From positions 736,001 through 800,000 of the forward strand of contig CAXXMV010000008.1 in the NCBI GenBank assembly GCA_963662285.2: 64,000 nt of DNA. Direction: 5' to 3'. Shown here piece after piece: positions 2,234 to 37,332 of this stretch (position 1 is the first letter of the stretch; every line of letters begins with the position of its first letter). The position numbers were made by a program, and so were the translations under genes. The notes under the pieces were generated by a model, which was given only the letters and a program-made list of their open reading frames with translations, was not told where the DNA came from and did no database searches. Origin of the DNA: a bacterium (lineage in GTDB: Bacteria; Hinthialibacterota; Hinthialibacteria; Hinthialibacterales; Hinthialibacteraceae).

Positions 2234-2338
2234 AGCATACTACGCTCTATTACTCTGTTTTTCGATTTGCGATGCATGCGTATTGCTTGCGCAGGATTTT
2301 TTAGGCTGGAGATATTTATTCATAACACAAGTAAAATC

Positions 2339-2387
2339 AACACGCGCCGGAAGGGACTCGAACCCCCAACCGCCTGATCCGAAGTCA
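2339..2387 (-). repeat. att site: 49-bp duplicate of the tRNA-Arg 3' half (distal island boundary)
   Basis: Identical to 37255-37303. Confidence 0.95.
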
Positions 2388-16800: not shown

Positions 16801-17053
16801 AAAACGGTCGGCTGCGCTGTATTTCATCAAGGCATACTTTAAGAACTAACATTTCCTTTTGGTGAGTTTCATCTATTGATATGGTCTCAACTCCCCAACG
16901 CAAATCGATAGATTCTAGATGGTGACGTCTTTCACGTAGACGCTCTTCCAATTCAGGAAATACAACATTGCGTAAATAATCTCTTTCCGCTTGCATATCT
17001 ATAAACGTACTTGTAATAAAAATTGGTCGTGTTTTCCAGTGAGCAGAAGTCAT
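10853..17053 (-). CDS. 2066-aa DUF4062 + NACHT/STAND NTPase + TPR + HEAT + FGE-sulfatase-domain protein
   Basis: IFITSTFIDMQAERD, IDLRWG, SVTALEIEYG (DUF4062); GRTGSGKS Walker A, LLIDALNQ Walker B; TPR/HEAT repeats; C-terminal FMMGS...RLPTEAEWEYACRAG...NAWGLYDMVGNVMEWC...GFRL. Confidence 0.88.
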   Translation of the reverse strand: MTSAHWKTRPIFITSTFIDMQAERDYLRNVVFPELEERLRERRHHLESIDLRWGVETISIDETHQKEMLVLKVCLDEIQRSRPFLIGLIGDRYGWVPPKERMAAATQEASFESDLEGKSVTALEIEYGVLKSPSQQKRCFFYFRESFDYDRMTLAQSSHFSEQHAGEPARAERLRALKERITQELPDRVRSYRADWKSDSDGTIQVYNLEDLGNQVLEDLWNELNEETLEFAHQSVSSWQEQERSILNTFVEQRGRDFIGRADIIKTLMKHVTSIALKDEKWGICITGRTGSGKSALFAYMHRMLESSDVLLLSHAAGISQQAGQVDAMLLRWTEELAQFLSIENPLAEKDTHSTKYQNDLESRPVEQETRQGFSTEEIENTFFTILGQTSLKRRVVLLIDALNQFERSPRASYMTWLRRILPDNVRLIATTIPGSESESLQQRKGIDLLPLSLLNTDEAESIIKTICARYHRTLNQKVLQILLDKQNADDEPSLGIPLWLELAVEELNLLDADDFKRAHQQYSGTDEERLLAMMCDTTQSFPPDVEGMYGFMLEHAEEIHGKEWAESFANLIAVSRQGWREKDIRILLPRIMAQLYPEISTDDCPWNDLRFASLRRTFRSHIVQKGEQGQWDFFHTKMREAIYHRYLSDTEKEKSIHLGIADYLSDLDSTDLIQFSNLMFHYIGADAKLMAAKYYARLLFEVTKNQHWGPTWSLAEHIIRNQLETNPKSDSETVDFGPGFDWVLSLLDKSQLKPYERINICMKFHEFLLNALESHTPLILRLRFMQCVRDILQNIIESGSSEFSQQHGLSVCHITVGGMLMDQGNLPDALHSYRKAQSIHDRLTNTDTGNPEWQRTLAIIHGKISMVLEAQDNVDEAVQECDTAIEICKFLIEKDPDNIQWKSEFSAIFFQYSDLLLKKNLSEALRLNIDNVYKNALAIQKQCVEIYGGNEQWHYRYARGLIQYGDVLIELGKTNEAQEAYHSAYAIREYFASIYPENARLQLDLSDCETRIGDLFFNQGDTALGLEKYQSALAIRERIAALDPGNAQWQHRVSQMYFTMAIVHKQMGENEKANHWIVRCRDILSHMKDHGMYLDVQSIQLLRILSQSEAMSTDKMNSVVQSGFITQWDALIMEILKLKEDELIQDQDKAPTVPLTKEDEIKNCIQSLKHHSAFVAGKAAQKLGAMKVVDSLPYLVNLLQNPSGLVLGEVRNAIKVFGEQSIPFLMDGIQHTDESIRANSIDLLNVIRYRLTWDGNIYDLPEEAVSALLNALHDPVPSVWKEAAFAICDIGERDPDVLAALDTFLQETENRILPKVQEIISKAESMGNFEKLNVANSLDSLGEIYLRLCDGEKAKGLLESALQIYEMLYDADHLTVALTNIHLGDAYRDMMEYDDAMTFYNKAVKFSVAQKVLTGEFSNCASKAFNISYIISDIKELQEATLSKRLEILKPCNGSQVDRMLLAIIECYNDPSAELRERAITLIKEALDNEIIKKNKPKALRVFVSAVHDDSEQIRSKAIATLRNHYADTAEARLALREAFDDTNEYIAYSAIVALSEIAKNSRHAVEVLIDAQQDKNPIVRLQVAGELIQIGQCVNESLALILDSLNSSQKILRLHAFLIVSSLNNSGLDDLYHDWSVHYSAINSAIPALKEALDDPSLKIRKIALSALSKIEGEPEITVPLLIDAIRGKPEGVFEEAVEGIRHIGAAAKEAIPDLIEIIKNHEKYSADGMVLPIQSAGAIGKMGSDAKSVIPELIEVFPDHPVLAIEAFACLSPRDTEALTLLNKALEDDDDIIRGEAKLVIEKLEEKWAKESASSNIESSKSETVTIDLPTITIDLPNLPSNAKPLKMVQIPAGTFMMGSPDNDYWRDKDEIQHPVTLGQPFYLGVYVVTQAQWSAVMGTNPSYFYNQINHPVENVSWNDCQEFIEKLNQMGKGVFRLPTEAEWEYACRAGTVTRYFWGNDEEKCIDYVWRLHETNLQTGEVGLRLPNAWGLYDMVGNVMEWCHDLYGKYKLSAQIDPIGPLNGKNRVLRGNHWYFNVNRSAKREFKSPDYTMGYLGFRLVKE

Positions 17054-17345: not shown

Positions 17346-17409
17346 GCGTACCTTTTATGAGCATTTTCCTAAGCGGTGAAAATTATATTTCAAGCTTATT
17401 AAGCAAACA

Positions 17410-19125
17410 CTACTTCACGATTTTCTTTCCTACTTTTTTCAGATAATCTGGAATATTCTTTACGGCATCCCGGTCATAGTCTTTTGTTTCTTCATCCAGG
17501 TCTTGCCACTCTTTCATATCTGGATGAGTTCGTTGTTTTATATCATTTGGCCCTTCAGTAAAATTTTCCAAGCGGTTAAAGGCAAGCCAGCGTTTGTGTT
17601 CCATTTCCGCAAGAATTTCTATATCTTCCTTAGAAAAATGATATTCTTCAACTTCGCTAGTTGCACATATGATTTGAAGACCAAGTGTGCGGAGTTTGAT
17701 TCCAATGTGCAGCGCTTGAAGTCTGTTGGATTCGCGATAATACATATTTAACTGATTCCAGGATTTGTGAGACTCCGTCATCCCAAAGTCATTTTTTTTT
17801 GCTGCGGATTCTAAATAATTTTTATGAATGACTTTTGCCAGATGGTCTAGTTCATCTTCAACAATACATTGTAATGTTGCCGTTTCATTCAATGCACCAA
17901 AATAGTTAAAAGCCGCATCCCGAAATTCAGAGTTCATATAACAGGATTGATCAACATCGGCAGGAATTCTTACAAAGATGGGAATTTTATATTTTTTTAG
18001 TTGTTGAGAAATATTATGAGGATATAAGAATGACTTGCGCTTTTCATTGAAACAAAATACAGCGGATATTATCGCATTTTTATTGTCCAGCCATTTCGTG
18101 AATTGTTTATCAAGGGTTTCCTTTTCAATGTCGGCATGAATAAATTCTATATCAGCCAGTGTATTGATTTGTGGATATTTTGCATATAATTCTTGCTTTC
18201 GGTTTTCCGAATCTAAATCGATAATAGATATTAATGTTTTTTGCTGATTTGCCATTTGATAGAGTTGAATGGCTTTAATAACTAAAATTTCCCCCAAACA
18301 TCCAAATCCTATAAGAATTAAATGGATAAAGTTATTGGAAGAAGGCATGATGGGGTTATAATCCAGCGGAGATTCATTTAATAGTTTCCTAGCCATGATC
18401 TCATACAAGTTGATGATTTGAAACTCTAATCCTGAATGCGGATTCAAGAATAAGTCTTTATCTCGTAAAACAATACACATTTTTGAGTCAATTATATGAA
18501 TATAGTTTCTAAGGATATTACATTTTTTTGATGCAACTGAATCTAACAAAGTCTGATGTACTTCATAAGCAAGTTCCATATTCTTAATATCTTCATCAAA
18601 AAAAGCAAATAAGTATGATGCTTTTTGAATACCTGCTTCAAGCAAAATAGAGTATTTTGTTGGTTCTGCTTGGATATGGTACAAATCCTGATTGTTGAAA
18701 TCATTTGAAACAATATCCAGACTAACATCAGCAAGCAGTACAACGTTTTTTTGCTTTTCTAACAAATCACAAATAAGATGTTTTGCCATTGGGGAATAGC
18801 CACAAACAATGTAGTGAGAATTAAAAAATCGAAGGATAAGTGATATATATTTTTTATAAAACAACGCGATGAATCCTAAAACCAATGTAAATGAGGATGT
18901 AACGACTCCCAGCCATCGAGCCAATTCTACTTGCCATGTTTGAGGAAGATCATCATATTCAAGAATAAATAATTGAATAGTGCTGTAAAGACGATCCCAA
19001 AGACTCCATGCAGGATGTTCAAAGAAATAACCCCAAAGCCCCAAAAATATTGTCCAACAGATTAGACAGGACAAAATTGAACCGCGATTGACTTCGATGT
19101 ATTTGATACCTTTCAAAATATTCAT
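17410..19125 (-). CDS. 2TM + RCK/TrkA-N-like Rossmann domains + RyR-repeat protein (channel-like)
   Basis: Two N-terminal TM helices flanking WDRLYSTIQLFILE; HYIVCGY and LILIGFGCLG Rossmann motifs; LAKVIHKNY...W..L...RESN and LAEMEHKRW...HPDMKEWQDLDEETKDYDR RyR repeats. Confidence 0.82.
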   Translation of the reverse strand: MNILKGIKYIEVNRGSILSCLICWTIFLGLWGYFFEHPAWSLWDRLYSTIQLFILEYDDLPQTWQVELARWLGVVTSSFTLVLGFIALFYKKYISLILRFFNSHYIVCGYSPMAKHLICDLLEKQKNVVLLADVSLDIVSNDFNNQDLYHIQAEPTKYSILLEAGIQKASYLFAFFDEDIKNMELAYEVHQTLLDSVASKKCNILRNYIHIIDSKMCIVLRDKDLFLNPHSGLEFQIINLYEIMARKLLNESPLDYNPIMPSSNNFIHLILIGFGCLGEILVIKAIQLYQMANQQKTLISIIDLDSENRKQELYAKYPQINTLADIEFIHADIEKETLDKQFTKWLDNKNAIISAVFCFNEKRKSFLYPHNISQQLKKYKIPIFVRIPADVDQSCYMNSEFRDAAFNYFGALNETATLQCIVEDELDHLAKVIHKNYLESAAKKNDFGMTESHKSWNQLNMYYRESNRLQALHIGIKLRTLGLQIICATSEVEEYHFSKEDIEILAEMEHKRWLAFNRLENFTEGPNDIKQRTHPDMKEWQDLDEETKDYDRDAVKNIPDYLKKVGKKIVK

Positions 19126-20210
19126 AACTGTATCGACTTCGTTAGCTTTGGAATCATTTGATAATCTCTATCTTCAAAGGGTTTTTGAAATTCCAATAGC
19201 AATTCTTTCATTATGGGATGTATTGCGCATTGCTCCTTTACGTGGCAGTATTGGCAGGTAGTTTTTCCGGTAATTCCCAATTTCCCGACACCCGCCAACT
19301 CACCGGATCCCGAAGCTTTTATCACGGTTCCTTTCCCTTGAGGTGTTAACCAGTAAGCAAAATGACAATGCAGCGGCTCGACTTCAGCCCAATCGCCTGC
19401 TTGTAGGGTTTTAACATTCCAAGTTAATGAGCCCCGCTGGTTCATTGGTTTAGACCAAATTTGCATTTCACCCGATAGAATCCCATAGATTTCAACAGCA
19501 GGAAGTCCGTGAACATGGACATCCTGTTTGTCTTTGGGCGAGAAAAAACTCCATGTAAATCCCAATCCTTGTTTTTGATAGGGTAAATAAGGATCGGCTA
19601 CACGGAGATTAAAGGCTCGATTTCCTGCAGAAAGAATTTCATCTACGGTCTGGCTTTTAACAACTCGGACTCCGGTTTCTTGCAACGAAGCCCAATGACA
19701 TGCCAATGCATCCATGGATGGAATTGTTGATGTTGTATCGATAACCTCAGAAAAATGACTTTGAACATAATTAGCTATCGTTCGGACATTTGGCTCTTTT
19801 GTATCTGCAAGAACTTCATTCAACAATTTCCAGGAAATAATATCTTTTTGCGTATTCAAGTTAGCCCAACCAGATTCAGTTAATGAGATTGTCACTGGGT
19901 ATAAATACCATTTTTTGTTTAGCCCCTCGTAGCGTGGACTATTATGATCGTTTAACAAAAGTGGCAATTCATCTTCTAAAAAGTAACTTCCTGGCTTCAG
20001 TCCAAGATCTTCCTTTAAGGGACGTACGAGTGCTTTATAAAGCGATTCCCCCTGACGTAACTTTGTTGAGGGAAATGTTGGATGTCCTTGTTTTTCTATT
20101 AGCAGAAATTGTACAGGGTCATGAGAAGATAATTTTCTGCAAATCAAACAATATAATACATACGAAATGGACATATCTCTGACATTTTCTCGATTTGATT
20201 TTTCACACAT
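19122..20210 (-). CDS. Degenerate Nudix-like domain fused to a cupin domain
   Basis: FPSTKLRQGESLYKALVRPLKEDLGL resembles a Nudix box lacking the RE..EE acids; HVHGLPAVEIYGILSG...AGDWAEVEPLHCH cupin metal motifs; ATGA overlap with the next gene. Confidence 0.65.
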   Translation of the reverse strand: MCEKSNRENVRDMSISYVLYCLICRKLSSHDPVQFLLIEKQGHPTFPSTKLRQGESLYKALVRPLKEDLGLKPGSYFLEDELPLLLNDHNSPRYEGLNKKWYLYPVTISLTESGWANLNTQKDIISWKLLNEVLADTKEPNVRTIANYVQSHFSEVIDTTSTIPSMDALACHWASLQETGVRVVKSQTVDEILSAGNRAFNLRVADPYLPYQKQGLGFTWSFFSPKDKQDVHVHGLPAVEIYGILSGEMQIWSKPMNQRGSLTWNVKTLQAGDWAEVEPLHCHFAYWLTPQGKGTVIKASGSGELAGVGKLGITGKTTCQYCHVKEQCAIHPIMKELLLEFQKPFEDRDYQMIPKLTKSIQL

Positions 20211-20975: not shown

Positions 20976-21005
20976 TTGACATGTCACTACTTTGTATGAT
21001 AAAAT
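20976..21005 (+). promoter_or_regulatory. Sigma70-type promoter for the right-hand operon
   Basis: TTGACA-N18-TAAAAT with TGn extended -10; TGACATGTCA palindrome overlaps the -35. Confidence 0.6.
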
Positions 21006-21094: not shown

Positions 21095-24000
21095 ATGCTT
21101 CATTGCCCTAAATGCCATTCTTCAGATTTGACATTTCGTAAAAAGAAAAACGTCTATATTTGCGATAACTGCGATCATGAGTTTCATACGAAACAATCAT
21201 TTACCGCAAAGCGGATTTTTATCAGTTACGGACATGATGAACATGCCGCGTTGGCAGAAAAACTCAAAAACGATCTTGAAAAGCGTGGACAACTTGTTTG
21301 GTTCGATCGCAACCGGATTCCGCTGGGGCCGGATTGGGAGCTCAGCATCGAACAAGGTCTGGCTTGGTTGAGAGAGAACAGGGAAAACAGTCTCTTTATC
21401 ATCATCATGACACCCCACTCCGTGCGGCGACCGGATGCTTATTGTCTAAATGAAATAGCTTATGCGGTTTCTAAAAAATTCGACATTTTACCGATCATGC
21501 TGGTATATTGCGAACCGCCACTGTCGATCCTTCGCTATCAATATCTAGATATGCAGGATTGTCTTCCAATCGATATTCACGCAACACGCTATGAGAAGCA
21601 TTTTGAACGACTGTGCCAAGCGATCGAGCAGAACCATCGTGATTTTGAGGGTAATCAAGCATATTTCATGAAGTATCTTGATCCATTTTCGCTCTCATTC
21701 AACGCTCAAGTATTATCGAAATTGCCGAATTTTGTGGGACGAGGGTGGGTGATAGAAGCAATCGACCGCTGGCTCAGCGATCCTGAAGGTTCAAAAGTGT
21801 TTTGGATCAGCGGCAAGGCGGGCATCGGAAAATCATCGTTGTCGGTTTGGCTTGTTGAGAATCGCCCGGAAATCGCCGCCTTTCACATGTGCGAGTATCG
21901 CAACAACAATAAATCCGATCCCAAAATATGTCTGCTGTTTCTAGTTTATCAACTCACCCAAGAACTGCCTGATTACCAGGAGAAACTATTACAGCGCGAC
22001 ATTTCCAAAGACGTGCTGGAAAGCGACGCTTCGACGTTGTTTGATTCGCTAGTGGTTGAGCCGCTTTCGATGATCAAAGCGCCTGAACACAACTTCGTGA
22101 TTTTGATCGATGCGTTGGATGAAGCATCGCAAGGTCGTGTTAACGACCTGGCCGAATTCATCGCCAACGACTTCAAGAAGACGCCTTCCTGGCTACGCCT
22201 CATTGTCACCAGCCGACCAGAGACGAATATCCAGACGTATTTTCAATCCATAGATCCCTTTGATTTGGACAAGGCCAAAGATCAGAACGAAAACGACATC
22301 AAAACCTACTTACAAACTGCCTTGAAGCCGTTTTATCCCGATCAACCCATTTCTTCCGGCGTCTTGCAGACCATCGTCGAAAAAAGCGAGATGGTTTTCA
22401 CCTACGTTCAACAAATCATCCAAGAATTGCACGCAGGCCGACTGTCGTTGGATCGGTTAGATGAATTTCCCCGCGGATTGGGCGAATACTTTTTTACATG
22501 GTTTAAGCGACAATTTCCCGAAGCCGACAAACGCAAGCATGACAGCCAGGGGACCGTAGAGATATACAAAAAGCAATGTCTCCCCTTGTTGGAACTCCTG
22601 GCTGTCGCCCAAGAGCCATTAGCCTTGAATACCATTAAATCGATTTTGAACTGGGGCGATTATGGCGATGACATCATTAACTTTTTCGGTTCATTGCTCA
22701 TCAAGGATGAGACGGTTCATCCCTTTCACAGTTCGCTGATGGATTGGTTGGAAGATTCACAACGGTCGTATCCCTATACCATCCGCGCCATCGCCGGGCA
22801 TCGCCGTATGATGGAGTATGGTTGGGGAGTGTATGAAGACAATGTCCAAACCCTTCCTGTGTATTTTTTAAGGCGCCTTCCTCTTCATCTAATGGCTTTG
22901 GAGGAATGGGATCGTATCCGACAGTTTCTTTGTGAACCGCATATTCTCTCTCATTGGTCGAGGGATAAGCAGCAATATGAATTGCTCGCGCTGTGGCGGC
23001 AAATTGGCGAGGCCCTGGACATGGTCGCTCTATATATGGAGGCGACTGTACATCTGGGGGCATCGGATTTTTCACCTCGGCGAAAGCAGCAGATTTTACG
23101 TTCGATCGCTTCGTTTTTGGCTTTGAACGGTCACTATTCGTCGGCGGAAACTCTTCTTCGACAAGCGTTAGCGATTCTGATGGAATTAGAGGAAGCGTCT
23201 TTGATCGATGTAACCGAATGCAAGGAGGATTTAGCGCGAGTTTATACACATCAATACAAGCAGGCCCCGGCGCTTCGTTTATTTAAGGAAGTGGAAAAAG
23301 CATATGAAAGCGAATTGGGCTTGGATCACTCTGATATGGCAGATTTATTCACCCATATGTCGGATTTGTATTATCAGCAATGCCGATTCACTGAGGCAGC
23401 GCATTATTGCCGTCAGGCTCTTAATATCCATAAGAAACATTTTCACTTCAATCACTCTCTTCTCGCTGATTCGCAGCATGCCTTGGCGAATATCAATCGC
23501 TCTCAAGGGTGTGGTGAAGAAGCGGAATCGCTCTATTTGAGATGTCTGAACATTCACCACGAAAACTTGGGAGATGATCATATCAAGGTCGCCGACGTGT
23601 TGCACGATTTGGCGATTCTCTACTTTCAACAAAATAACATTACGCAAGCGGAATACCATTTCAAACGCGCATTCGAGATTCGCAACCGTTTTTTGGGGGC
23701 GTCTCACCCTCAAATCGCGGATACATTGAGCGCGTTGGCGGACGTCATGGTCTCCAAAGGTGACCTTACGGGCGCCGAACGGTATTATCAAGACGCCTTA
23801 CAGATGCTGGAGACGTCATTCGGCAAAGAAAGCGTAAAGCGGGCGGACGTTATGGAGCGATTCGCCGAGCTCTATATACGTCAGGATCGCTTTGAACCGG
23901 CGATGCGGCTGCTCGATGAAACTCTCTCCATTCGAAATAAGTATTTGGGTCCCATTCAGTTCGACACCATGCGCGCACGGCGTAAGAGAACACAATTACA

Positions 24001-25720
24001 GCTACGTTATGAAGGACTGGATAAAAGAAGTGCGTTTGCTAATCGAAATGAGTTCCTTGATATCGAAAGCAGACTGGCTGAAACGTACGGTCAGGCAATC
24101 TATGATGCATTTGTAGAGAAAAAAAGTCCGGAACCGGGCGATTTACTGCCGCCCCAAACCGCCGTACAGTTACAAAATGATCTTGCCCTACTTAGGGATG
24201 TGATAGAAATACGCTTGTATGCGGATGTTCTTTCCTACACCATGGTTCAATACCGCATTTGTGAGCTCAGTGGAGATTGGGGCGATGTGGGAAAAGACCG
24301 CGCCGATTTTAATTTGATGCAAGTACTGCTTTCTCTTCCGCCCGATGAAGAGATCCAATTTCACCACTATTCACTATATGCAGAGGCGCGAGAGGAATTG
24401 ATGGGAACGCTGCATCTTGATCGCTTGAATAAAGAATCGATCGATGCGTTGAAAAAAAAGATGGAATGGTTCGAGTTAAAGATATTAAACAAAAAATTCA
24501 ATCTGAAATCGAAGGAGATTAATCGAATTCTCGCATGGTTGAAATCCAATCATCGATTGACAAACTCATCGGAATGCTTGTTATGGGGAAGAGCAGATTG
24601 CTTCGGTATGCAAAACAACACAATATCCATCTACCACCATGAGGAGATGCGTTCACCTTTGCTGGCCAATTATTGCGTATCATTTTCGAAAGATACGGAA
24701 ATCATCTTACGTGAAGAAGGGATCAACTATGTGATGTATATCAAATGGGCGAGTGTATTTAATGGTTCGGCGTTTGCGCCGACGGCTAAGGAACAAATCT
24801 CGGATCGTCTAAAACAATGCGCGCTGGAGGCCTGCCGAATCGGAACGCGACGGGATTTTGAACTGCAGAAAGATTTTTTCATCAGCGCCATGATGGAAAA
24901 TATTTTTTATTATGAATTAACCGACAAATCACTCAATGAGGTGGTTGGAAGTATATCCGTTGGAATGCAATCTGGATTAAGGAACTTCCACAATAAAAAT
25001 TTCCTGGCGCACGTGAATTGTCTTACATGCGAATGGCATCCGCTTGTCGATGGCAAAGTCAGCCCCATCGGCAATATTTTAGACACAGCTATCGAGAAGA
25101 GCGATTACAACCGCGCCTTGCAACTTCTATATATCTATCTCAGCGACGGCTGGTTTCTAGACACCGACATCTCTTTTATGTATCCCTATACTCATATTCT
25201 GTACCTTCTTATTCTTCCTTATCTGAAAGAGCCTTTGTATGTCGACTTTGAAATGATGCAAAAGGATTTGCCGACACTGTTTGATTTTATGATAAGTGAA
25301 TATAAGCGAATGCTCGAACATTTGCATAATTTCCTTCTTAAACGAAGTTATATTGATGAGGGAAAAGAATGCCATTTTGAGAATATCAAAGATAAGATTC
25401 TCTGCTTCCAAACACTTTATGAAACGTTGGGTACACATTTCGACACGGAATGGGTGAAATCAATTAATTTTTGGAGAAATTTTTTCAGCAGAGTTCTTCG
25501 AGAAGATCCCTTGTTTCATCAGGCATTGACGATTCAGATCCAAGAATATCAAATGGATTTCTATGCCAAATTGTTGAGTCGTTTTCATGGCCAAAAGCAA
25601 TACGATCCCAGCCCGGCTGGTGTTGAGAATTATATCATCGAACAAATGACGGATCGAGGGTACTCCATTCGAGATAAGCAGATGATCTATCTACCTTTAT
25701 CCGAACTTGGACTCGATTGA
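21095..25720 (+). CDS. Zn-ribbon + TIR + NACHT + TPR protein with an unassigned C-terminal region
   Basis: CPKC...CDNC; IFISYGH, VWFDR, YCLNEIAYA (TIR catalytic Glu); FVGRGW, GKAGIGKS, ILIDALDE, LIVTSRPE (NACHT); 42-aa LG.DH..A TPRs. Confidence 0.9.
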   Translation: MLHCPKCHSSDLTFRKKKNVYICDNCDHEFHTKQSFTAKRIFISYGHDEHAALAEKLKNDLEKRGQLVWFDRNRIPLGPDWELSIEQGLAWLRENRENSLFIIIMTPHSVRRPDAYCLNEIAYAVSKKFDILPIMLVYCEPPLSILRYQYLDMQDCLPIDIHATRYEKHFERLCQAIEQNHRDFEGNQAYFMKYLDPFSLSFNAQVLSKLPNFVGRGWVIEAIDRWLSDPEGSKVFWISGKAGIGKSSLSVWLVENRPEIAAFHMCEYRNNNKSDPKICLLFLVYQLTQELPDYQEKLLQRDISKDVLESDASTLFDSLVVEPLSMIKAPEHNFVILIDALDEASQGRVNDLAEFIANDFKKTPSWLRLIVTSRPETNIQTYFQSIDPFDLDKAKDQNENDIKTYLQTALKPFYPDQPISSGVLQTIVEKSEMVFTYVQQIIQELHAGRLSLDRLDEFPRGLGEYFFTWFKRQFPEADKRKHDSQGTVEIYKKQCLPLLELLAVAQEPLALNTIKSILNWGDYGDDIINFFGSLLIKDETVHPFHSSLMDWLEDSQRSYPYTIRAIAGHRRMMEYGWGVYEDNVQTLPVYFLRRLPLHLMALEEWDRIRQFLCEPHILSHWSRDKQQYELLALWRQIGEALDMVALYMEATVHLGASDFSPRRKQQILRSIASFLALNGHYSSAETLLRQALAILMELEEASLIDVTECKEDLARVYTHQYKQAPALRLFKEVEKAYESELGLDHSDMADLFTHMSDLYYQQCRFTEAAHYCRQALNIHKKHFHFNHSLLADSQHALANINRSQGCGEEAESLYLRCLNIHHENLGDDHIKVADVLHDLAILYFQQNNITQAEYHFKRAFEIRNRFLGASHPQIADTLSALADVMVSKGDLTGAERYYQDALQMLETSFGKESVKRADVMERFAELYIRQDRFEPAMRLLDETLSIRNKYLGPIQFDTMRARRKRTQLQLRYEGLDKRSAFANRNEFLDIESRLAETYGQAIYDAFVEKKSPEPGDLLPPQTAVQLQNDLALLRDVIEIRLYADVLSYTMVQYRICELSGDWGDVGKDRADFNLMQVLLSLPPDEEIQFHHYSLYAEAREELMGTLHLDRLNKESIDALKKKMEWFELKILNKKFNLKSKEINRILAWLKSNHRLTNSSECLLWGRADCFGMQNNTISIYHHEEMRSPLLANYCVSFSKDTEIILREEGINYVMYIKWASVFNGSAFAPTAKEQISDRLKQCALEACRIGTRRDFELQKDFFISAMMENIFYYELTDKSLNEVVGSISVGMQSGLRNFHNKNFLAHVNCLTCEWHPLVDGKVSPIGNILDTAIEKSDYNRALQLLYIYLSDGWFLDTDISFMYPYTHILYLLILPYLKEPLYVDFEMMQKDLPTLFDFMISEYKRMLEHLHNFLLKRSYIDEGKECHFENIKDKILCFQTLYETLGTHFDTEWVKSINFWRNFFSRVLREDPLFHQALTIQIQEYQMDFYAKLLSRFHGQKQYDPSPAGVENYIIEQMTDRGYSIRDKQMIYLPLSELGLD

Positions 25721-25798
25721 AACAGGACGAAACTACTGGAACTGTTGAGCAGTACAGACGACGCGTTCTTGACAAACAGAGCATTAATCGAGGTTTTT

Positions 25799-28700
25799 AT
25801 GCTAATCGATTTTCTGACTTATCAACGAGAGACCCAAAAGCAACCGGCTCCGTCTAAGCCACTCGATTGGACTTGCGGGGAATTGCTTTGTGATGTCAGC
25901 TATCTTCAATACACGGGGCCGTCGGAATGGGAGTGCACTGGTTTATTCGGCTCTTCACATACATGCAAAGATATACACCGGAATCGCCGTTTTCTCTGCT
26001 TGGTTCCACGGGAAGAAATCTATCGCAAAGGTTGGGTGCGTAAGCGATTTGCGTTTGAGTACAAACGGCTTCTCACCGCCTCTCCCTCCCCCTTTCTGAT
26101 GATTCCCGTAGGATGGATCGAAAGGGTTGATTATGTCATGTGCATCTTGGAATGGAATGACAGGGTTCCGCTGCAAACCTTGTTAGAATCATCACAATCG
26201 GCGCCATCCTCTTCTCCACTTCCCTTTGCCGATCCCCAAGTGCGAGCGCGCGATGCACTCGAATTGTTTTTCCAAGTCGCCACGGGAATGAAACAGTTGC
26301 ATGACAAAACAGGGTTGATTCATCACAATCTTCATCCCGGAACCCTCTTTTGGAGTCAAGAGCGTCAGGCGTTTCAAATCAGCGGTTTTCTACTTTCGCA
26401 TAGTCTGTATTGGACTCGGGAGGATGAACCTGAGTTTGAAACGACATTTCCGGACAACAATGTATCTTCAGAAGATAGTATCTGCGCATTTCAATTTCCC
26501 GAATCCGTCCGTCCCTATCTTCCTCCAGATGTTCTCGATAATCCCCTGCATGCGGAACCCTGCGACGATATATATTCTCTCGGCATGATCGTATATCAAA
26601 TTCTGCATAATTTTAACGATGAAGTCGTCAAGCGGTTTCCAACGGATGGTTTTGAAACGCCCGAGTGTGGAAGTGATGGGCTTCTTACCTTACTGCGCCG
26701 ATGCCTGGCGACGCAGAGGGATGATCGATGCATTTCGTGGGACGCTCTTCTCGACGATGTACGTAATATGTTGTCTGAAAATAAGAGTCGATCCCTGCAA
26801 AAACCCCAACTCATTCTTTCATGCGACGACTGTGTGAATCTATCCTGGGCGCACATCGACATGAGTAAATACAGTCGCGCCGGGGAATGGGCCAACCAAG
26901 CCCTCGACATCGAGTCGAATAATTCTTTCGCTCAAATAGCCAAGATGATCACTCTTGGGAAAATCGGTCGCTTGGATGAAGCCTTTGAAATTGGATCATC
27001 CTTACTTCGTAGAGAGCCGGAAAACGCCGAAGCGCATAATTATATGGGTTATTTGTATTACCAAAAAGGAGATTTCAAAACCAGTCTTGAACATTTTGAA
27101 TCCAGTTTGCGTTACGATTCCAACCTAGCCTGCAACTATAACAACCTCACTGTACTCTATCTTGTTCACGAACGCCTGAAAGAAGCGCGGGACTGCTTGA
27201 TGCGGGGCTTGGAACGCTTTCCCTTCGATCCCGATCTATTGGTTTCATGGGTTAGTGTATCCGAATCGCTAGGAGACCTCCCGAGCGCATTGGCCCATCT
27301 CGAAGAAAAACTCGCGGACGATTGGGATGGCTCCATTCACAATGCGTATGGTATGGTGCTGGAAAAAAAAGGCCGCCTCGATGACGGAATAATCCGGCTA
27401 GAGGCCTTTCTTTCGACCAGGCCGAGCGCCCATCTCGCTTGGAACCGGTTGGGAATTCTTTCAGAAAACGCCGGACATTTGGAAAAAAGTCTGGAAAGTT
27501 TTCAAAAGGCCATCCGTCTCAAACCACATGACGAAAACTATGTGGGCAATTGCCTACGGATTTTAAACTCATTGGGTTGTTTGTCTGAGGGAATTCAACT
27601 TGGAGAACAATGGTTGTCCTGTTATTATCCCGCAATGTCTGTTAGCAGCCTATTGGGAGTGCTATTGACTAATGCGGATGAGATAGAACGCGCGGTAGAG
27701 CCTCTTCAGAACGCTCAACGCATTGCCCCTTGCGATGAGACATTGGCGGGCAATCTGGTTCACAGTCTGCGCATTGCCGACCAGGTAAATCAAGCCATTG
27801 AATTCGGCGCCGAATGGTCAGTAACTCATAAAGGTGGATCGTATTTTTGGAATCAATTGGGGAACGCCTATTTTGGCTTGGAGCGTTTTGCCGAAGCAAT
27901 TCCCTGTTATCAGAAAGCTCTGGAATTCGAACCGGATGATGCAGAAATCGCATCCAATTTATTAAATGCCTATTTTAAAATAAACGATTTTTCCGCTTGT
28001 ATGCAATTCGCCGAAGCATGGCTTGCAGACCATCAGGGCAACGAGAATTTTCATACTTACTTAAGCATCTCCTTCATCAACACGAATCAGATGGAAAAAG
28101 CCATCTCTACCTTAAAAACCGCTATCAGCAAGCAGCCTGAATTAGCAAATTCACTGAAAGAAGTGATTGCCAAATTAACTCAGAGTGGGCAGGAACAACG
28201 GGCGATTGAATTCGGCGAACTCTGGCTCCTACACAATCCTCCGACGCTGGATGTTTTGAATCAAATCGGAATCGTCCATTACGAAAACAAACGCTTTGAA
28301 GAGGCGACCGCCTGTTTTCGAAACGCACTCGAACTGGAACCAAGTAATAAAACTGTCGCATTGAATATAATGAATTCCTACGATAACTTGAATCAGTATC
28401 AGCGGTGCATCGAATTTGGAGAAAATTGGCTCCAACACAATCCTCCGACGCTGGATGTTTTGAATCTTATCGGAATCGTCCATTACAAAAACAAACGCTT
28501 TGAAGAAGCGACCGCCTGTTTCCAAAACGCGCTCGAACTGGAACCAAGTAATAAAACTGTCGCATTGAATATAATGAATTCCTACGATAACTTGAATCAG
28601 TATCAGCGGTGCATCGAATTTGGAGAAAATTGGCTCCAACACAATCCTCCGACGCTGGATGTTTTGAATCTTATCGGAATCGTCCATTACAAAAACAAAC

Positions 28701-29842
28701 GCTTTGAAGAAGCGACCGCCTGTTTCCAAAACGCGCTCGAACTGGAACCAAGTAATAAAACTGTCGCATTGAATATAATGAATTCCTACGATAACTTGAA
28801 TCAGTATCAGCGGTGCATCGAATTTGGAGAAGATTGGCTTAATCGGCACTCGCCAGATGATACAATATTCGGACATCTTGTCGATGCGTACACTCATTTA
28901 GGAAAGTATGATAAAGCAGAACAAGCGTTAGTAAAAGCACCGAAAGAATATCAATATTTGAGATGTATACTAAACGCTTACTATCAATCCAAACAATTTG
29001 ACAAAGCCATCGATTGTGCAGAACAATGGAAAGATCAATACAATCTTGAGCCGGAGTTATGGAATTCCTTGGGACAAATCCATTATGATAAAAAACAATA
29101 TTCGGAAGCCTTAGAATGCTATGAAGAAGCATCGCGATTGTCCCCTGAAAATCTAGATTACCTTAATAACTCTGCTTTGGCCTTGTCCTCATTAAAAAAA
29201 CACGATGAAGCGATTGCCCGAATGGGCTATGTACTTGAGCAACAGCCTAGTACTTTACTTTATGCACAAAATTACTTTACATGCCTTAAAGACGCCAACC
29301 ACAAAGAAAAAGCTGTTGAATTTGCGAAAGGGTGGATGGAAGCAAATACTGTGGATGAAATTTTATTGAATTCTGTAGGACTAACGTTAGATGATTTAAA
29401 GAAAGATAAAGATGCAATTGAATGCTACCAGAAGGCTCACGAACTGAATCCTCAAAATGCCGGGTATTTAAATAATATGGGAATGAGTTTCAAAGCACTC
29501 GGCCAATTCGATCAAGCCATTACTTTAACGAAGCAAGCCATAGAACTGGAGCCGAAAAATATTGTTATTATTGTGAATCATCTTATCTGTTTGAAAAGTG
29601 CAGACCGTCTGGATGAAGCGATCCAAATCGGCAATGCTTGGATTCAAGAACATGGCGAAAAACCAATAGTTTTAAATCAATTGGCGTTGATTCACGAACA
29701 AAAATTTGATTTTGAAAATGCGCTGGTCTGTTATGATTCCACACAAGAGAAAGAGAAATACCTTGCCGCATTAATAGATTACGGCCGGTATGAAGCCCTG
29801 AATCAAGCCTTGGAATGGTATGACTGGATGGAGACGGCGTGA
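25799..29842 (+). CDS. Inactive-looking Ser/Thr kinase domain + long TPR array
   Basis: QVATGMKQLH, LIHHNLHPGTL, ISGFLL, YLPPD, DIYSLGMIVY, LLRRCLA kinase subdomains; many TPRs; ATG at 25799 has a GAGG RBS (ORF track opens at 25745). Confidence 0.8.
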   Translation: MLIDFLTYQRETQKQPAPSKPLDWTCGELLCDVSYLQYTGPSEWECTGLFGSSHTCKDIHRNRRFLCLVPREEIYRKGWVRKRFAFEYKRLLTASPSPFLMIPVGWIERVDYVMCILEWNDRVPLQTLLESSQSAPSSSPLPFADPQVRARDALELFFQVATGMKQLHDKTGLIHHNLHPGTLFWSQERQAFQISGFLLSHSLYWTREDEPEFETTFPDNNVSSEDSICAFQFPESVRPYLPPDVLDNPLHAEPCDDIYSLGMIVYQILHNFNDEVVKRFPTDGFETPECGSDGLLTLLRRCLATQRDDRCISWDALLDDVRNMLSENKSRSLQKPQLILSCDDCVNLSWAHIDMSKYSRAGEWANQALDIESNNSFAQIAKMITLGKIGRLDEAFEIGSSLLRREPENAEAHNYMGYLYYQKGDFKTSLEHFESSLRYDSNLACNYNNLTVLYLVHERLKEARDCLMRGLERFPFDPDLLVSWVSVSESLGDLPSALAHLEEKLADDWDGSIHNAYGMVLEKKGRLDDGIIRLEAFLSTRPSAHLAWNRLGILSENAGHLEKSLESFQKAIRLKPHDENYVGNCLRILNSLGCLSEGIQLGEQWLSCYYPAMSVSSLLGVLLTNADEIERAVEPLQNAQRIAPCDETLAGNLVHSLRIADQVNQAIEFGAEWSVTHKGGSYFWNQLGNAYFGLERFAEAIPCYQKALEFEPDDAEIASNLLNAYFKINDFSACMQFAEAWLADHQGNENFHTYLSISFINTNQMEKAISTLKTAISKQPELANSLKEVIAKLTQSGQEQRAIEFGELWLLHNPPTLDVLNQIGIVHYENKRFEEATACFRNALELEPSNKTVALNIMNSYDNLNQYQRCIEFGENWLQHNPPTLDVLNLIGIVHYKNKRFEEATACFQNALELEPSNKTVALNIMNSYDNLNQYQRCIEFGENWLQHNPPTLDVLNLIGIVHYKNKRFEEATACFQNALELEPSNKTVALNIMNSYDNLNQYQRCIEFGEDWLNRHSPDDTIFGHLVDAYTHLGKYDKAEQALVKAPKEYQYLRCILNAYYQSKQFDKAIDCAEQWKDQYNLEPELWNSLGQIHYDKKQYSEALECYEEASRLSPENLDYLNNSALALSSLKKHDEAIARMGYVLEQQPSTLLYAQNYFTCLKDANHKEKAVEFAKGWMEANTVDEILLNSVGLTLDDLKKDKDAIECYQKAHELNPQNAGYLNNMGMSFKALGQFDQAITLTKQAIELEPKNIVIIVNHLICLKSADRLDEAIQIGNAWIQEHGEKPIVLNQLALIHEQKFDFENALVCYDSTQEKEKYLAALIDYGRYEALNQALEWYDWMETA
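28231..28842 (+). repeat. Three tandem 204-bp (68-aa) near-identical repeats in the TPR array
   Basis: ACACAATCCTCCGACGCTGGATG at 28231, 28435 and 28639. Confidence 0.95.
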
Positions 29843-29908: not shown

Positions 29909-32386
29909 ATGAACCTACACTGGTATGACGAACAAATTCAACTTTACAAAAAACTTACTTCCCTCTATGAAAAAATGGCGGCGGGATTAAAACGGCGTCT
30001 GCAAATCGCCATGTCCGAGATGGGGATGGACGCTATCGTTCAGGCGCGTGCAAAAACCATCTCCAGCTATGCAGAAAAGATCGTCCGCAAACAGAGCAAA
30101 TATGCCGATCCTATCCGTCTGATCACCGACCTCTGCGGACTGCGCATCATCGTCGAACGATTGGATGAAGTTCGCCGATTGTGCGATTTCATTGAAACCG
30201 AGTTTGAGATTGATGAAGGAAACAGTGAAGATTGCCTCGAACGTCTGAAGATCAATGAGTTCGGCTACTTATCCAATCATTACATCGTGATGTTGACTTC
30301 CCCCGAAAAAGCTGAAGCGTTCGGCATTACGACGAGCGATCTCGATATCATAAAAACAGTCAAGGGGCTGGATTTTCCGATCAAGGCCGAGATCCAAGTA
30401 CGGACGCTACTGCAACATGCATGGGCGGTTTTCATACATAAGCATCTCTATAAAAGGAAATGGAACCTACCGCGGGCGTGGCTCCGCGAAACATCCCGTA
30501 TCTCGGCTATGTTGGAGGATGCGGACGATTCGTTTTCCCGACTGGTCGAGGAAATTGACGTCTATAAGACACAGTACGGCGCCTACATGACGCCAGATCA
30601 GATGAACAGTGAAATCGAGATGCTGCAATTGATTCAACGTTACGATCCCGGTAATGAATCTCTTGCCCGTGAAATTGCTCGAATCGCGAAGGAAAGCGGA
30701 CGCTGGTCATTGGTGGTGGAAACATTATTGCCGTTTCGCGAATCCGCCGATCCCGACTCTCTTCTCGATCTCGGCAACGCCATTTTGCACATGAAAGATC
30801 CGCTCCAAGTCGATGAAGGCCACCGCCTGATTGAGCGCGCCATTGAATTGTCTGCTAAAAACGCACCAGCCTATATCACCTTAGCCCAATTGTGCAGAGA
30901 AAGCGAACAGACAAAACGTTTGCGCTATTACGAAATGGCTTTTCAGGCCGATCCAAACGAACCCATGGCATTTTGTGGTTTTCTGCTAAACAAAATCATA
31001 GCAGAGCGAAATCGAGATTTTCTAGCATTGCTTCGCCCTCTTATAGAAAATGCCGTCAAACGTTGTAATGATCGAATACGCGCCGGTGTCGATGCTTCCT
31101 CTTCGTATTGTCATATCGGAATATTGCAGATGGCGTTGGGTCGAATGGAATCGAGCGCATCCGCCTTTGCCAAAGCGGCGACATTAAAACCGGTTCCTCG
31201 CGTATTTTATGAATATCGAGATTCGGTGCGTTTATTAATAAATCAGGTTAACAATCAATGGCCCGAACTACTCATACTCGACCAACTATTCGATCTCTTC
31301 AACAAAGCAGAGGCGCTTCAAAGCGGTTCAATCTCTGACATTTCAAACGACTTGCAGACGACGAGCCTGATACGGATTCCCGTTGTCATTGTGGCAGGCA
31401 GCTGCAATGAAGATTCGTCTCACCTCATGGAGGCGCATCGAAAATTGATGACAGAATCGTTTCAAGGATTTCAAGGAACAATTGTATCAGGCGGAACCCG
31501 ATCAGGCGTCAGTGGTCTGGTGGGAGATATGTCGTTGGATATGGGCAACGCCGTGAAACTGGGATATATACCCAAAGACATCGAATCAAATCAACTGCAT
31601 CCTGCTTTCCTCATCCGGAGAACGAAGGGATCAACCTTTTCGACGCTGGAACCAATCCAGTATTGGATAGATTTGCTACAATCTGGGATTTGTCCATTGC
31701 AAGTAAAATTGATCGGCTTCGGTGGTGGGGTGCTTTCAGCGTTTGAATATCGCTTGGCGCTGGCAATGGGCGCCTGGGTGGGCATATTGCCTGATAGCAG
31801 GCGTGAAGCCGCCCGCCTGCTGGACGACGATGATTGGAATGGCTCACCGAACCTTCTTCGCATTCCGTTGGATGCTGGGATTTTACGTTCCTTCATTCAC
31901 CCTGCGCCGTCGGCGGCGTTTGCGTCGGATGATCGCGAGCGAATGGCACGGGGCATTCATGGCGAATATCGAAAAAAACATGTGAAGCGATTGCTGCAAT
32001 ACGAGCCTTCCGCCGTCGAGTGGGAATATCTGAGAGACGATTTGAAAGAGTCTAATCGGCGACAGGCCGATCACTATTGCATGACGTTGCAATCGGCCAG
32101 TCTCAACATTCGGAAGGCGCTGAGGAGGAGTGAAATACAAATCATTGAATTCACTGATCGTGAAATAGAAGTCATGGCCGAAAGAGAACATTCGCGTTGG
32201 ACCGTGGAGCGCTTGATGGATGGATGGCGTCTGGGAGAGCAGAACACCGACCGAAAAGAAAGCCCCTATCTGGTCTCCTGGATGGACCTTTCCGACGATA
32301 TTAAGGACTACGACCGAAACGCAGTCAAGGACATTCCACGGATTTTAGAAGAATACGGTTATGAAGTGTATCGTGAAACCATCTGA
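29909..32386 (+). CDS. RelA/SpoT synthetase domain + TPR + SLOG-like Rossmann + RyR-repeat protein
   Basis: RAKTISSYAEK, DLCGLRII, GYLSNHY, EIQVRTLLQHAWA; VVIVAGS, IVSGGTRSGV, GFGGG...FEYRLA (SLOG-like); MARGIHGEY...W..L.DDLKESN and MAEREHSRW...LVSW.DLSDDIKDYDR (RyR). Confidence 0.85.
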   Translation: MNLHWYDEQIQLYKKLTSLYEKMAAGLKRRLQIAMSEMGMDAIVQARAKTISSYAEKIVRKQSKYADPIRLITDLCGLRIIVERLDEVRRLCDFIETEFEIDEGNSEDCLERLKINEFGYLSNHYIVMLTSPEKAEAFGITTSDLDIIKTVKGLDFPIKAEIQVRTLLQHAWAVFIHKHLYKRKWNLPRAWLRETSRISAMLEDADDSFSRLVEEIDVYKTQYGAYMTPDQMNSEIEMLQLIQRYDPGNESLAREIARIAKESGRWSLVVETLLPFRESADPDSLLDLGNAILHMKDPLQVDEGHRLIERAIELSAKNAPAYITLAQLCRESEQTKRLRYYEMAFQADPNEPMAFCGFLLNKIIAERNRDFLALLRPLIENAVKRCNDRIRAGVDASSSYCHIGILQMALGRMESSASAFAKAATLKPVPRVFYEYRDSVRLLINQVNNQWPELLILDQLFDLFNKAEALQSGSISDISNDLQTTSLIRIPVVIVAGSCNEDSSHLMEAHRKLMTESFQGFQGTIVSGGTRSGVSGLVGDMSLDMGNAVKLGYIPKDIESNQLHPAFLIRRTKGSTFSTLEPIQYWIDLLQSGICPLQVKLIGFGGGVLSAFEYRLALAMGAWVGILPDSRREAARLLDDDDWNGSPNLLRIPLDAGILRSFIHPAPSAAFASDDRERMARGIHGEYRKKHVKRLLQYEPSAVEWEYLRDDLKESNRRQADHYCMTLQSASLNIRKALRRSEIQIIEFTDREIEVMAEREHSRWTVERLMDGWRLGEQNTDRKESPYLVSWMDLSDDIKDYDRNAVKDIPRILEEYGYEVYRETI

Positions 32387-32792
32387 ACCTTGGGCGTCAC
32401 CCATTCCAACGGCACGAGTCATCATCGTCAATGAAGAGGGCGCTGTATTGCTATTGAAACGTGGTGAGGGCGACTATGGTGCCGGTCTGTGGTGCTTACC
32501 CGGTGGGAAGGTGGATTATGGAGAATGCCTCAAGGAGGCGGCCCGTCGTGAACTGCATGAAGAAACATCGATCCACCCAGACCATCTACGTTTTTTATTC
32601 TATCAGGATGGATTACCCAAATTTGATCAGGATATGCATTGCATCGAACTTTTTTTTCAATGCGTATACTCCGGTCCCGTCTCCGTCAATTGCGAATCCA
32701 TCGATTTTGCCTGGGTTAAAGAGAAAGGAATACAAGATTATCCTATGGCTTTCAATCACGACCGAGCATTGAGCCGATATTGGGAAACATGA
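32361..32792 (+). CDS. Nudix hydrolase
   Basis: Nudix box GGKVDYGECLKEAARRELHEET; overlaps the upstream stop. Confidence 0.92.
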   Translation: MKCIVKPSEPWASPIPTARVIIVNEEGAVLLLKRGEGDYGAGLWCLPGGKVDYGECLKEAARRELHEETSIHPDHLRFLFYQDGLPKFDQDMHCIELFFQCVYSGPVSVNCESIDFAWVKEKGIQDYPMAFNHDRALSRYWET

Positions 32793-37172: not shown

Positions 37173-37258
37173 TCATTATTATATGGAAATTCTATGGAAA
37201 GAGGCAAAGGGGGAGTTTCAGGAAAATTATAAGTCTTTATATTTCAATAAATTAAACA

Positions 37259-37332
37259 CGCGCCGGAAGGGACTCGAACCCCCAACCGCCTGATCCGAAG
37301 TCAGGTGCTCTATCCAATTGAGCCACCGGCGC
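37259..37332 (-). tRNA. tRNA-Arg (anticodon TCG), no encoded CCA
   Basis: GCGCCGG acceptor stem, D-arm GCTCAATTGGATAGAGC, anticodon arm CCTGA-CTTCGGA-TCAGG, GGTTCGAGTCC T-arm. Confidence 0.95.

Follow-up and report, generated by a model that had tools for sequence, protein, structure and literature searches.

A RelA/SpoT synthetase joined to TRPM-type SLOG and RyR domains, and its possible role in a Thoeris-like nucleotide relay

Introduction

What purpose could be served by a RelA/SpoT synthetase that carries a long C-terminal tail of sensor-type domains, and what is the role of the Nudix hydrolase gene that overlaps its stop codon? These questions are raised by the gene P0001 and its neighbor P0002, located in a stretch of 64,000 nucleotides (the window) from a bacterium of the Hinthialibacterota (GenBank assembly GCA_963662285.2, contig CAXXMV010000008.1, positions 736,001 to 800,000 of the forward strand). 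An original prediction, made from the sequence without database searches, had read the pair as a ligand-gated alarmone synthetase toxin, converting one nucleotide signal into another, with the Nudix protein as its antidote. In the analysis presented here the synthetase, which looks intact, and the SLOG domain held up and the conversion of signals fits, while the pairing of a toxin with a Nudix antidote, as it had been worded, did not hold up. We give about an even chance to the reading in which P0001 both receives the signal and carries out the response in a Thoeris-like nucleotide relay located on a mobile defense island.

Results and Discussion

Layout of P0001 and P0002

The features of the two genes, with the evidence on which each was assigned, are as follows.

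29909..32386, + strand: P0001, RelA/SpoT synthetase, TPR, SLOG (LSDAT type) and two RyR repeats, 825 amino acids (aa) (Pfam, alignments, models)
29909..30574, + strand: synthetase-only RelA/SpoT domain, RelP/RelQ-like, residues 1-222 (Pfam, profile against PDB sequences, invariant residues)
30575..31339, + strand: helical TPR region, residues 223-477 (weak TPR matches, all-helical model)
31340..31912, + strand: SLOG domain, TRPM/LSDAT type, residues 478-668 (Pfam of orthologs, AlphaFold model, fold searches)
31910..32383, + strand: two RyR repeats, Repeat12-like module, residues 668-825 (Pfam, family profile, Foldseek, alignment)
32361..32792, + strand: P0002, Nudix hydrolase, 143 aa, intact Nudix box (Pfam NUDIX, E 3.4e-21)

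Both genes belong to a run of four closely spaced open reading frames (ORFs) on the + strand, P0004 (21095-25720), P0003 (25745-29842), P0001 (29909-32386) and P0002 (32361-32792), with gaps of 24 nt between P0004 and P0003 and of 66 nt between P0003 and P0001, and with an overlap of 26 nt between P0001 and P0002. Every element that had been predicted for the last two genes was recovered at its place by ORF translation, Pfam and structure comparison, and the E-values and Z-scores obtained for the domain identities lie far beyond chance. The model of full-length P0001 reached a pLDDT of 86.7 and a pTM of 0.82. Between the RelA_SpoT and RyR matches Pfam gave weak TPR matches; the TPR-S family (PF20308), which sits at the equivalent helical region of the homologs P0114 and P0108, was not matched in P0001 by Pfam. 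A kinship with SPY/OGT glycosyltransferases, brought up by the full-length Foldseek search, was treated as TPR repeat similarity only.

The synthetase domain

The Pfam family RelA_SpoT (PF04607) was matched at residues 47-184 of P0001 (E 1.5e-15, above the cut-off). The four motifs quoted in the prediction were read in the translation, RAK..EK at 47-57, DLCGLR at 74-79, GYLSNHY at 119-125 and EIQVRT at 161-166, and the HD, TGS and ACT domains, said to be lacking, had no Pfam match in P0001 at E≤0.01. Residues R47, K49, K57, D74, G77, R79, G119, E161, Q163 and R165 were invariant in all 41 aligned full-length homologs and Y120 was kept in at least 90% of them, with the same conservation in an alignment of 73 synthetase domains. 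These positions include those that we take to be the R/K pair, the Mg-binding Asp, the catalytic Glu and the G-loop Tyr (catalysis/ATP binding) of P0001. The invariance of the key motif residues in the 41 homologs is what would be expected of an intact catalyst, as had been claimed.

When a profile of the domain was compared with PDB sequences, 12 distinct sequences were matched at E≤0.01, eight of them RelP/RelQ-type small alarmone synthetases (E 8.7e-20 to 7.4e-14). Other matches were CapRel (2.8e-5), the GTP pyrophosphokinase chain 7oiw (8.7e-4) and a long Rel (4.8e-3). In Foldseek the full-length model was superposed on RelP/RelQ with TM-scores of 0.56-0.59 on the target; the score of P0001 against the NCBIfam model YjbM was 40.8 bits, the cut-off being 320. 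The domain looks catalytically competent, and its nearest relatives are enzymes that pyrophosphorylate nucleotides, a kinship that does not by itself fix the acceptor.

The SLOG domain

The identity of the middle domain was approached with a set of 74 sequences, in which the region equivalent to that of P0001 had been cut from 73 related loci. The family LSDAT_prok (PF18171) was matched by 68 of the 74 at E≤0.01, with a best E of 2e-12, and the AlphaFold model of residues 478-668, built on the alignment of orthologs, reached a pLDDT of 92.7 and a pTM of 0.90. A fold search was needed because the SLOG profile gave nothing significant against PDB sequences, where TRPM2 appeared at E 0.15-1.7 only. 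In the VIA-align comparison of the model against 48,161 chains the top match was TM1055 (Z 16.2), and the N-terminal domain of the TRPM2 chanzyme was aligned with 187 of the model's 191 residues at a root-mean-square deviation of 2.6 (Z 15.5). Further matches were the Moco carrier protein MCP (2iz5, Z 15.0), the TRPM2 domain 7aov (Z 14.9), LOG proteins at Z about 13-14 (type-II LOG 5wq3, Z 13.6) and the SLOG domain of ThsA with 3'-cyclic ADP-ribose (3'cADPR) bound (Z 11.0); after these, Rossmann folds of the glycosyltransferase-like class followed from about Z 8 downward. Foldseek, in turn, gave TRPM channels as the top matches, the best being zebrafish TRPM2 (E 2e-6).

A structure comparison had been chosen beforehand as the test of the SLOG identity; since SLOG proteins head the matches of both VIA-align and Foldseek, the identity is confirmed, and the modeled middle domain is a SLOG domain of the TRPM type. 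Structures of the SLOG domains of TRPM2 and ThsA with ADP-ribose or 3'cADPR are among its fold matches. Residues G523, G529, T530 and G533, invariant in 41 of 41 sequences, form a glycine-rich loop that is presumably nucleotide-binding.

The RyR repeats

In full-length P0001 the Pfam RyR family was matched at residues 741-820 (E 3e-14). The C-terminal 166 aa on their own matched it (PF02026) in two stretches (E 3e-16), in agreement with the paired repeats that had been predicted. The family profile matched RyR Repeat12 (6uhi), also in two stretches (E 2.3e-31), as well as bacterial single-repeat proteins (3nrt, E 1.6e-15). Among the Foldseek matches of the full-length model were the Repeat12 structures of RyR3 with ATP (6uhh) and with AMP-PCP (9ls7), with TM-scores of 0.55-0.57 on the target, and binding of adenine nucleotides has been described for this fold (PMC12627627).

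A May 2026 preprint (PMC13232231) shows that RyR-domain proteins of phages (RyDEP) act on 2'cADPR/3'cADPR, either cleaving them or binding them tightly, through the ligand residues H75, W78, H100 and D117, which it describes as conserved across PF02026. The RyDEP sequence was taken from its phage record and placed in an alignment of eight sequences with the repeats of the window and those of partner proteins. Repeat 2 of P0001 showed H761, W764, S785 and D802 at these positions, agreeing in three of the four, and repeat 1 showed H, Y, E and N. A tblastn search with the RyR part against phage records gave four weak matches, none of which was RyDEP.

Both C-terminal modules thus belong to families with members shown to bind ADP-ribose-type nucleotides, and by analogy may do the same. 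Since the synthetase looks intact and the sensor families bind nucleotides of this type, the predicted conversion of one nucleotide signal into another fits the protein by analogy with these relatives.

The family and its neighbors in other genomes

A search of 5.8 billion proteins recovered 141 relatives of P0001 among 8000 candidates scored, the best 120 of which share 30-44% identity with it, mostly at 97-100% query coverage. At E≤1e-30 the family counts 762 representatives scattered over bacteria and archaea, and is large enough to be studied. For the analysis of gene neighborhoods one genome per species was scanned, giving 538 relatives of any RelA/SpoT type, from which the best 80 loci were kept with up to 8 kb of flanking DNA per side. 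The same architecture was present in all 80, from many bacterial phyla and from Methanoregulaceae, Methanobacterium, Halobacteriota and Bathyarchaeia. Closer to the window the gene is patchy: among other genomes of its taxonomic family it was found in one of 19, and among more distant ones in none of 21, several of these genomes being incomplete.

Nudix genes were sought by tblastn with P0002 as the query, so that the counts are bounded by BLAST-level detection and by the short flanks. A match was obtained anywhere in 47 of the 80 loci and within 700 bp of the synthetase gene in 42. Of these close matches, those on the strand of the synthetase gene number 25 upstream and 11 downstream; five fall inside the assigned gene span, and one is located upstream on the opposite strand.

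The remaining operon neighbors were tallied as same-strand ORFs with gaps below 250 bp. The tally comprised 189 ORFs, or 157 once 32 labeled as Nudix had been left out, and came from 67 of the 77 loci in which the main gene was called (three of the 80 were dropped). The commonest Pfam families among the 157 were TIR_2 (19), RyR (14), TrkA_N (11), AAA_16 (10), DUF4062 (9) and nSTAND1 (7). When iterated hidden Markov models seeded with the TIR and DUF4062 domains of the window itself were used, ORFs of either kind were detected in 41/80 loci, in 32 of them at 3 kb or less from the gene.

A putative relay from TIR to synthetase

The TIR domain of the window lies in the first gene of the run, and the best promoter-like site lies before it.

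21095..25720, + strand: P0004, Zn-ribbon, TIR, STAND NTPase and TPR, 1541 aa, first gene of the same-strand run (TIR_2 E 3e-15, NPHP3_N E 2.6e-25, TPR)
20976..21005, + strand: best promoter-like site, 11/12 consensus positions, about 90 nt before P0004 (promoter scan)

P0004 is a candidate signal generator. Because its TIR domain matched no PDB sequence at E≤0.01, the candidate catalytic glutamate, E120, was assigned by eye. The TIR genes found in this operon and in 41 of the 80 loci are a plausible source of the signal, one that the prediction had overlooked.

What was observed are the identities of the domains, the conserved catalytic and ligand-type residues, the linked genes and a context that is mobile and patchy; from these we infer the following biochemical steps. 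P0004, encoded on the same strand two genes upstream of P0001, would detect an invader, and its TIR domain would cleave NAD+ to give an ADP-ribose-derived signal. Judging from the ligands of the domain families, the signal would bind to the TRPM2-type SLOG domain of P0001, to its RyR Repeat12-like module, or to both, and this binding might free the RelP/RelQ-like pyrophosphokinase from an autoinhibition exerted through the TPR region. With ATP as the donor, the enzyme would then pyrophosphorylate a purine nucleotide at its 3'-OH, yielding (p)ppGpp or (pp)pApp; the 3' end of a tRNA is a less likely acceptor. This output would arrest growth or starve the invader. The co-translated and presumably active Nudix protein could set the threshold of the system or reset it, its substrate being either the output of the synthetase or the signal that arrives. 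Nearby RyR-bearing membrane (TrkA_N) and AAA proteins may receive the same signal in parallel. To this complete version, a two-stage immune relay in which an ADP-ribose-type signal from a TIR-STAND protein passes through a TRPM2-type SLOG domain and a RyR Repeat12-type module to an alarmone-type output, with parallel receivers in the form of RyR-tagged AAA proteins and membrane proteins (two helices plus RCK) and with the Nudix protein as the off-switch, we hold only tentatively, judging it a little under an even chance.

Several observations weigh against the relay. On the SLOG domain of the window taken alone, LSDAT_prok (PF18171) gave E 0.071 and 12.8 bits, the cut-off being 25.4. In the RyR module a serine replaces the His100 of RyDEP in repeat 2, and repeat 1 is more divergent. 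No TIR or DUF4062 ORF was found in 39/80 loci within the DNA of up to 8 kb per side, and no Nudix match within 700 bp in 38/80; for these reasons the core gene can stand without TIR/DUF4062 and without Nudix, or else its partners are encoded elsewhere. The genome also contains a long RelA/SpoT homolog (RSH), which leaves room for a physiological role. Finally, promoter and terminator counts were at or below those of shuffled controls, and only the position of the best site was suggestive.

The Nudix partner

The Nudix gene overlaps the end of P0001, as had been noticed from the sequence. Counted from its ATG at 32361 to the last base of the P0001 stop codon (TGA, 32384-32386), the overlap is 26 nt, and the sole other in-frame start read by eye, a GTG at 32373, also precedes this TGA. 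The residues G48, G49, E64, E67 and E68 of the Nudix box (GX5EX7REUXEEXGU) are invariant in 33/33 partners, and because of this invariance the partner was read as an enzyme; the conservation argues for an enzyme and not for a binding antitoxin. The predicted complex of P0001 and the Nudix protein scored 0.19, where the mark is 0.32, and speaks neither for nor against binding. In some homologs (P0108, P0030) the Nudix domain is fused N-terminally, directly before the synthetase.

As to the substrate, the nearest solved relatives of P0002 were MutT and NudI (E 7e-11 and 1e-10), and ADP-ribose diphosphatases were not near the top of its matches among solved structures. A proline located 14-18 residues after the box, in the X-loop, is present in 26 of the 33 partners, P0002 included (P86), and such a proline is described as marking ADP-ribose diphosphatases among Nudix enzymes (PMC5389931). 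Judged from these residues, the substrate could be either the incoming ADP-ribose-type signal or the alarmone-type product, the former because 26 of the 33 partners carry the ADP-ribose-type proline.

These data bear on the explanation closest to the original one, a classical toxin-antitoxin pair with the Nudix protein, in which the C-terminal domains would tune the activity and no upstream TIR signal would be needed. The 26-nt overlap of the genes, the linkage in 42/80 loci together with the fusions directly N-terminal to the RelA/SpoT domain, and the likeness of P0002 to the MutT/NudI clade all fit it. Degradation of (p)ppGpp by Nudix enzymes has been reported, with an example in Thermus (PMC3153485; also PMC5845004 and PMC7584652), and hydrolase antitoxins have been described for toxSAS toxins (PMC7229694). 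However, the RelA-SLOG-RyR enzyme appears often to be kept without a Nudix partner, since tblastn gave no match within 700 bp in 38/80 loci, and this absence, together with a box whose invariance points to an enzyme, left the toxin-antidote pair unsupported in its original form. Moreover, the synthetase profile is much nearer to the non-toxic RelP/RelQ than to CapRel, the X-loop proline of the 26 partners is of the ADP-ribose type, and a pair of this kind would explain neither the TIR linkage nor the sensor tail, which is large and conserved. A classical pair is thus an unlikely explanation of the locus.

Other RyR proteins and alternative roles of the synthetase

A second protein with an RyR domain is encoded in the window.

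17410..19125, - strand: P0124, two N-terminal hydrophobic helices, TrkA_N (RCK-like) and RyR, 571 aa, divergent to the P0004 run (Pfam; helices by eye)

All four of the RyDEP ligand residues are present in P0124 and in a paralog elsewhere in the genome, as read from the alignment of eight sequences. Additional RyR-domain ORFs were found in 23/80 loci. Those of the TrkA_N type, to which P0124 belongs, were found in 17/80 and represent a recurrent partner family. Ten RyR-type neighbors were scanned with Pfam, with six TrkA_N proteins (five of them with RyR), three AAA proteins with RyR and one with RyR only as the outcome. The domain order of P0124 is channel-like, and no GYG filter is visible in it by eye.

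Such partners suggest a different assignment of roles, in which the RelA/SpoT domain would be the signal generator, its product being read by the RyR domains of membrane TrkA_N-RyR and AAA-RyR executors, the SLOG and RyR domains in cis serving as input or feedback and the Nudix protein clearing the messenger. The RyR and TrkA_N-type ORFs just counted, and the presence of RyR partners both in the window and elsewhere in the same genome, are in its favor; on the other hand, 57 of the 80 loci have no second RyR protein in the flanking DNA, and we know of no alarmone-binding RyR domain. While the binding of adenine nucleotides by the Repeat12 fold (6uhh match; PMC12627627) would suit this assignment, the RyR domain is likelier an input sensor, because the phage RyR proteins characterized in the preprint bind cADPR isomers, the product class of TIR enzymes (PMC13232231). 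This assignment of roles is improbable in our estimate.

The genome also encodes, elsewhere, an ordinary long RSH (746-aa frame, RelA_SpoT E 8e-43). A non-immune crosstalk, in which an accessory alarmone synthetase would read the NAD+/ADP-ribose status (stress, redox, DNA damage) and feed the stringent response while the Nudix protein did nucleotide housekeeping, is compatible with the RelP/RelQ-like synthetase, with this RSH, which could hydrolyze (p)ppGpp, and with the many loci without a visible TIR gene, but it is quite improbable given the patchy distribution of the gene, its location on an integrated island that also carries an integrase gene and insertion sequence (IS) elements, the dominance of TIR, STAND and WD40/TPR proteins among its neighbors and the presence of the family in methanogen and Bathyarchaeia genomes, where, to our knowledge, a bacterial-type stringent response would be unexpected.

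Comparison with known systems

The relay resembles type I Thoeris (ThsB, a TIR protein, and ThsA, SIR2-SLOG) in that a TIR gene is present in the locus and the effector consists of an enzymatic head followed by a C-terminal SLOG sensor. It differs in the head, a RelA/SpoT pyrophosphokinase in P0001 and SIR2 in ThsA, in the TRPM/LSDAT type of the SLOG domain, in the added RyR pair and TPR region, in the TIR domain being carried by a large STAND-TPR protein and in the frequent Nudix partner. The known Thoeris effectors are ThsA (SIR2-SLOG) or of the Macro/TM kind. Because P0001 has a RelA/SpoT head instead, and PADLOC gave no match to a ThsA model, the system was not classed as Thoeris; by analogy it may only work like Thoeris, a description that could as easily fail as hold. 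The candidate-defense models of PADLOC did match, with P0001 as PDC-S33 (9.5e-13) and P0002 as PDC-S07 (1e-13), and a paralogous pair of the same genome matched more strongly.

RelP/RelQ (YwaC/YjbM) are the best sequence and fold matches of residues 1-222 and share with them the catalytic motifs and the G-loop GY.S.H, but they are single-domain tetramers of about 210 aa, whereas P0001 adds about 600 aa of sensor modules. With toxSAS and fused CapRel proteins P0001 shares a synthetase-only RelA/SpoT domain, which in those systems is a growth-arresting effector regulated by its C-terminal region (PMC9712102, PMC11782079). CapRel, however, is distant in sequence (E 2.8e-5) and senses a phage protein directly, whereas the tail of P0001 is made of nucleotide-sensor domains. 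Likewise, the known antitoxins of toxSAS are SAH or other proteins and the partner here is a Nudix protein; no paper combining toxSAS with Nudix was found in the literature searches.

TRPM2, including the chanzyme, couples the same SLOG subtype to a Nudix hydrolase and has ADP-ribose as its ligand. Its output is an ion channel, in contrast to the enzyme of P0001, and its Nudix domain is of the NUDT9 type, unlike the separate MutT/NudI-like protein of the window. The RyR repeats of P0001 belong to one domain family (PF02026) with RyR Repeat12 and the phage RyDEP, and the tandem pair is similar to Repeat12; the pocket His and Trp plus the Asp are kept in repeat 2, and one ligand histidine is changed to serine. 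RyDEP, however, is a free dimer of 138 aa used by the phage to destroy or soak up cADPR signals, whereas the RyR module of P0001 is the C-terminal part of a host enzyme.

Burroughs et al. 2015 and Burroughs & Aravind 2020 are said to have defined SLOG/LSDAT and TPR-S systems. Neither this architecture nor a TIR-linked RelA/SpoT effector was described in any paper that the literature searches brought up, though the SLOG/LSDAT and TPR-S surveys may already list the architecture. Unplaced archaeal synthetase-only sequences, named 'divRel', are noted in Atkinson 2011 (PMC3153485); Nudix, TPR and RyR go unmentioned in the portions consulted of the main text of Jimmy 2020 (PMC7229694); and a preprint in which these surveys are cited (10.1101/2023.05.26.542521) mentions LSDAT beside TIR-associated TPR proteins. 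As far as the searches reach, the family is experimentally uncharacterized.

If the relay were correct, TIR/ADP-ribose immune signals and RelA/SpoT alarmones would be joined in one protein, giving a new class of effector for TIR-based immunity in bacteria and archaea and, for the first time, a TIR pathway whose effector is an alarmone synthetase. The SLOG-plus-Nudix combination of animal TRPM2 and the RyR sensor modules of ryanodine receptors would then be seen to cooperate in prokaryotic signaling. P0001 would also offer a tractable soluble enzyme for ligand questions on TRPM-type SLOG and RyR Repeat12 domains, which would be timely in view of the work on phage RyR proteins (PMC13232231).

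The island and its remaining genes

The other features of the window that touch on this context are the following.

2332..2387, no strand: 56-nt direct repeat, distal end of the island (repeat comparison)
2577-3647, - strand: patatin gene within the island
10853..17053, - strand: DUF4062, STAND, TPR, HEAT and FGE-sulfatase protein, 2066 aa (Pfam)
19122..20210, - strand: P0125, family unassigned, 362 aa (no Pfam or PADLOC match)
25745..29842, + strand: P0003, kinase-like and TPR, 1365 aa (Pkinase E 4e-6, below the Pfam cut-off)
33505-35197, - strand: IS21 genes after the Nudix gene
36123-37172, - strand: integrase gene beside the tRNA-Arg repeat
37248..37303, no strand: second copy of the 56-nt direct repeat (96% identity), overlapping tRNA-Arg in its 3' part (repeat comparison)
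37259-37332, - strand: tRNA-Arg

Because of the 56-nt repeats, the overlap of one of them with tRNA-Arg, the adjoining integrase and the IS21 genes, the segment was read as an integrated island; this is the signature of an element of about 34.9 kb that bears all of the TIR, STAND, RyR, RelA and Nudix genes.

A second, paralogous locus is present on the same contig (G000:C8:1141000-1159000; L084: 4987-15078). It encodes a 368-aa protein similar to P0125 (54% identity), a Nudix protein of 136 aa, a RelA protein of 1016 aa, in which a duplicated RelA_SpoT domain is accompanied by LSDAT and RyR, and a DUF4062-NACHT-WD40 protein. A small DUF4062 protein, an adjoining ISL3 transposase and, some 5 kb upstream, a gene with a TIR_2 domain were also observed there. 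In the whole genome of 7.29 Mb there are six TIR_2 matches, three of which lie within about 25 kb of either RelA-SLOG-RyR gene.

Relatives of P0125 were found in only two of the 80 other loci, besides the 54%-identical paralog that adjoins the second RelA-SLOG-RyR locus. By eye, P0125 shows a degenerate stretch resembling a Nudix box near its N-terminus and a cupin-like C-terminal half.

P0003, which lies between P0004 and P0001, was ruled out as a conserved partner, its kinase-like part having relatives in none of the 80 loci. The kinase motifs appear by eye to be lost (HRD to HHN, DFG to GFL) and are followed by about 25 TPRs, and the protein is probably a pseudokinase fused to TPRs.

Additionally, a WD40-repeat ORF at 3685-5442 (- strand) is preceded by a TIR_2 match at 5431-5754 whose frame has one TGA, and the stretch 3685-5754 could represent either two genes or a single TIR-WD40 gene interrupted by a stop codon. 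A repeat of about 215 nt (74-78% identical) occurs at 5575-5790 and 17141-17355, upstream of the minus-strand WD40 and DUF4062-STAND genes; with its GC-rich hairpin, it may be a shared regulatory element. Lastly, three tandem units of 204 nt (91-92% identical) in P0003, at 28190-28839, correspond to three near-identical TPR pairs of 68 aa and look like a recent internal repeat expansion.

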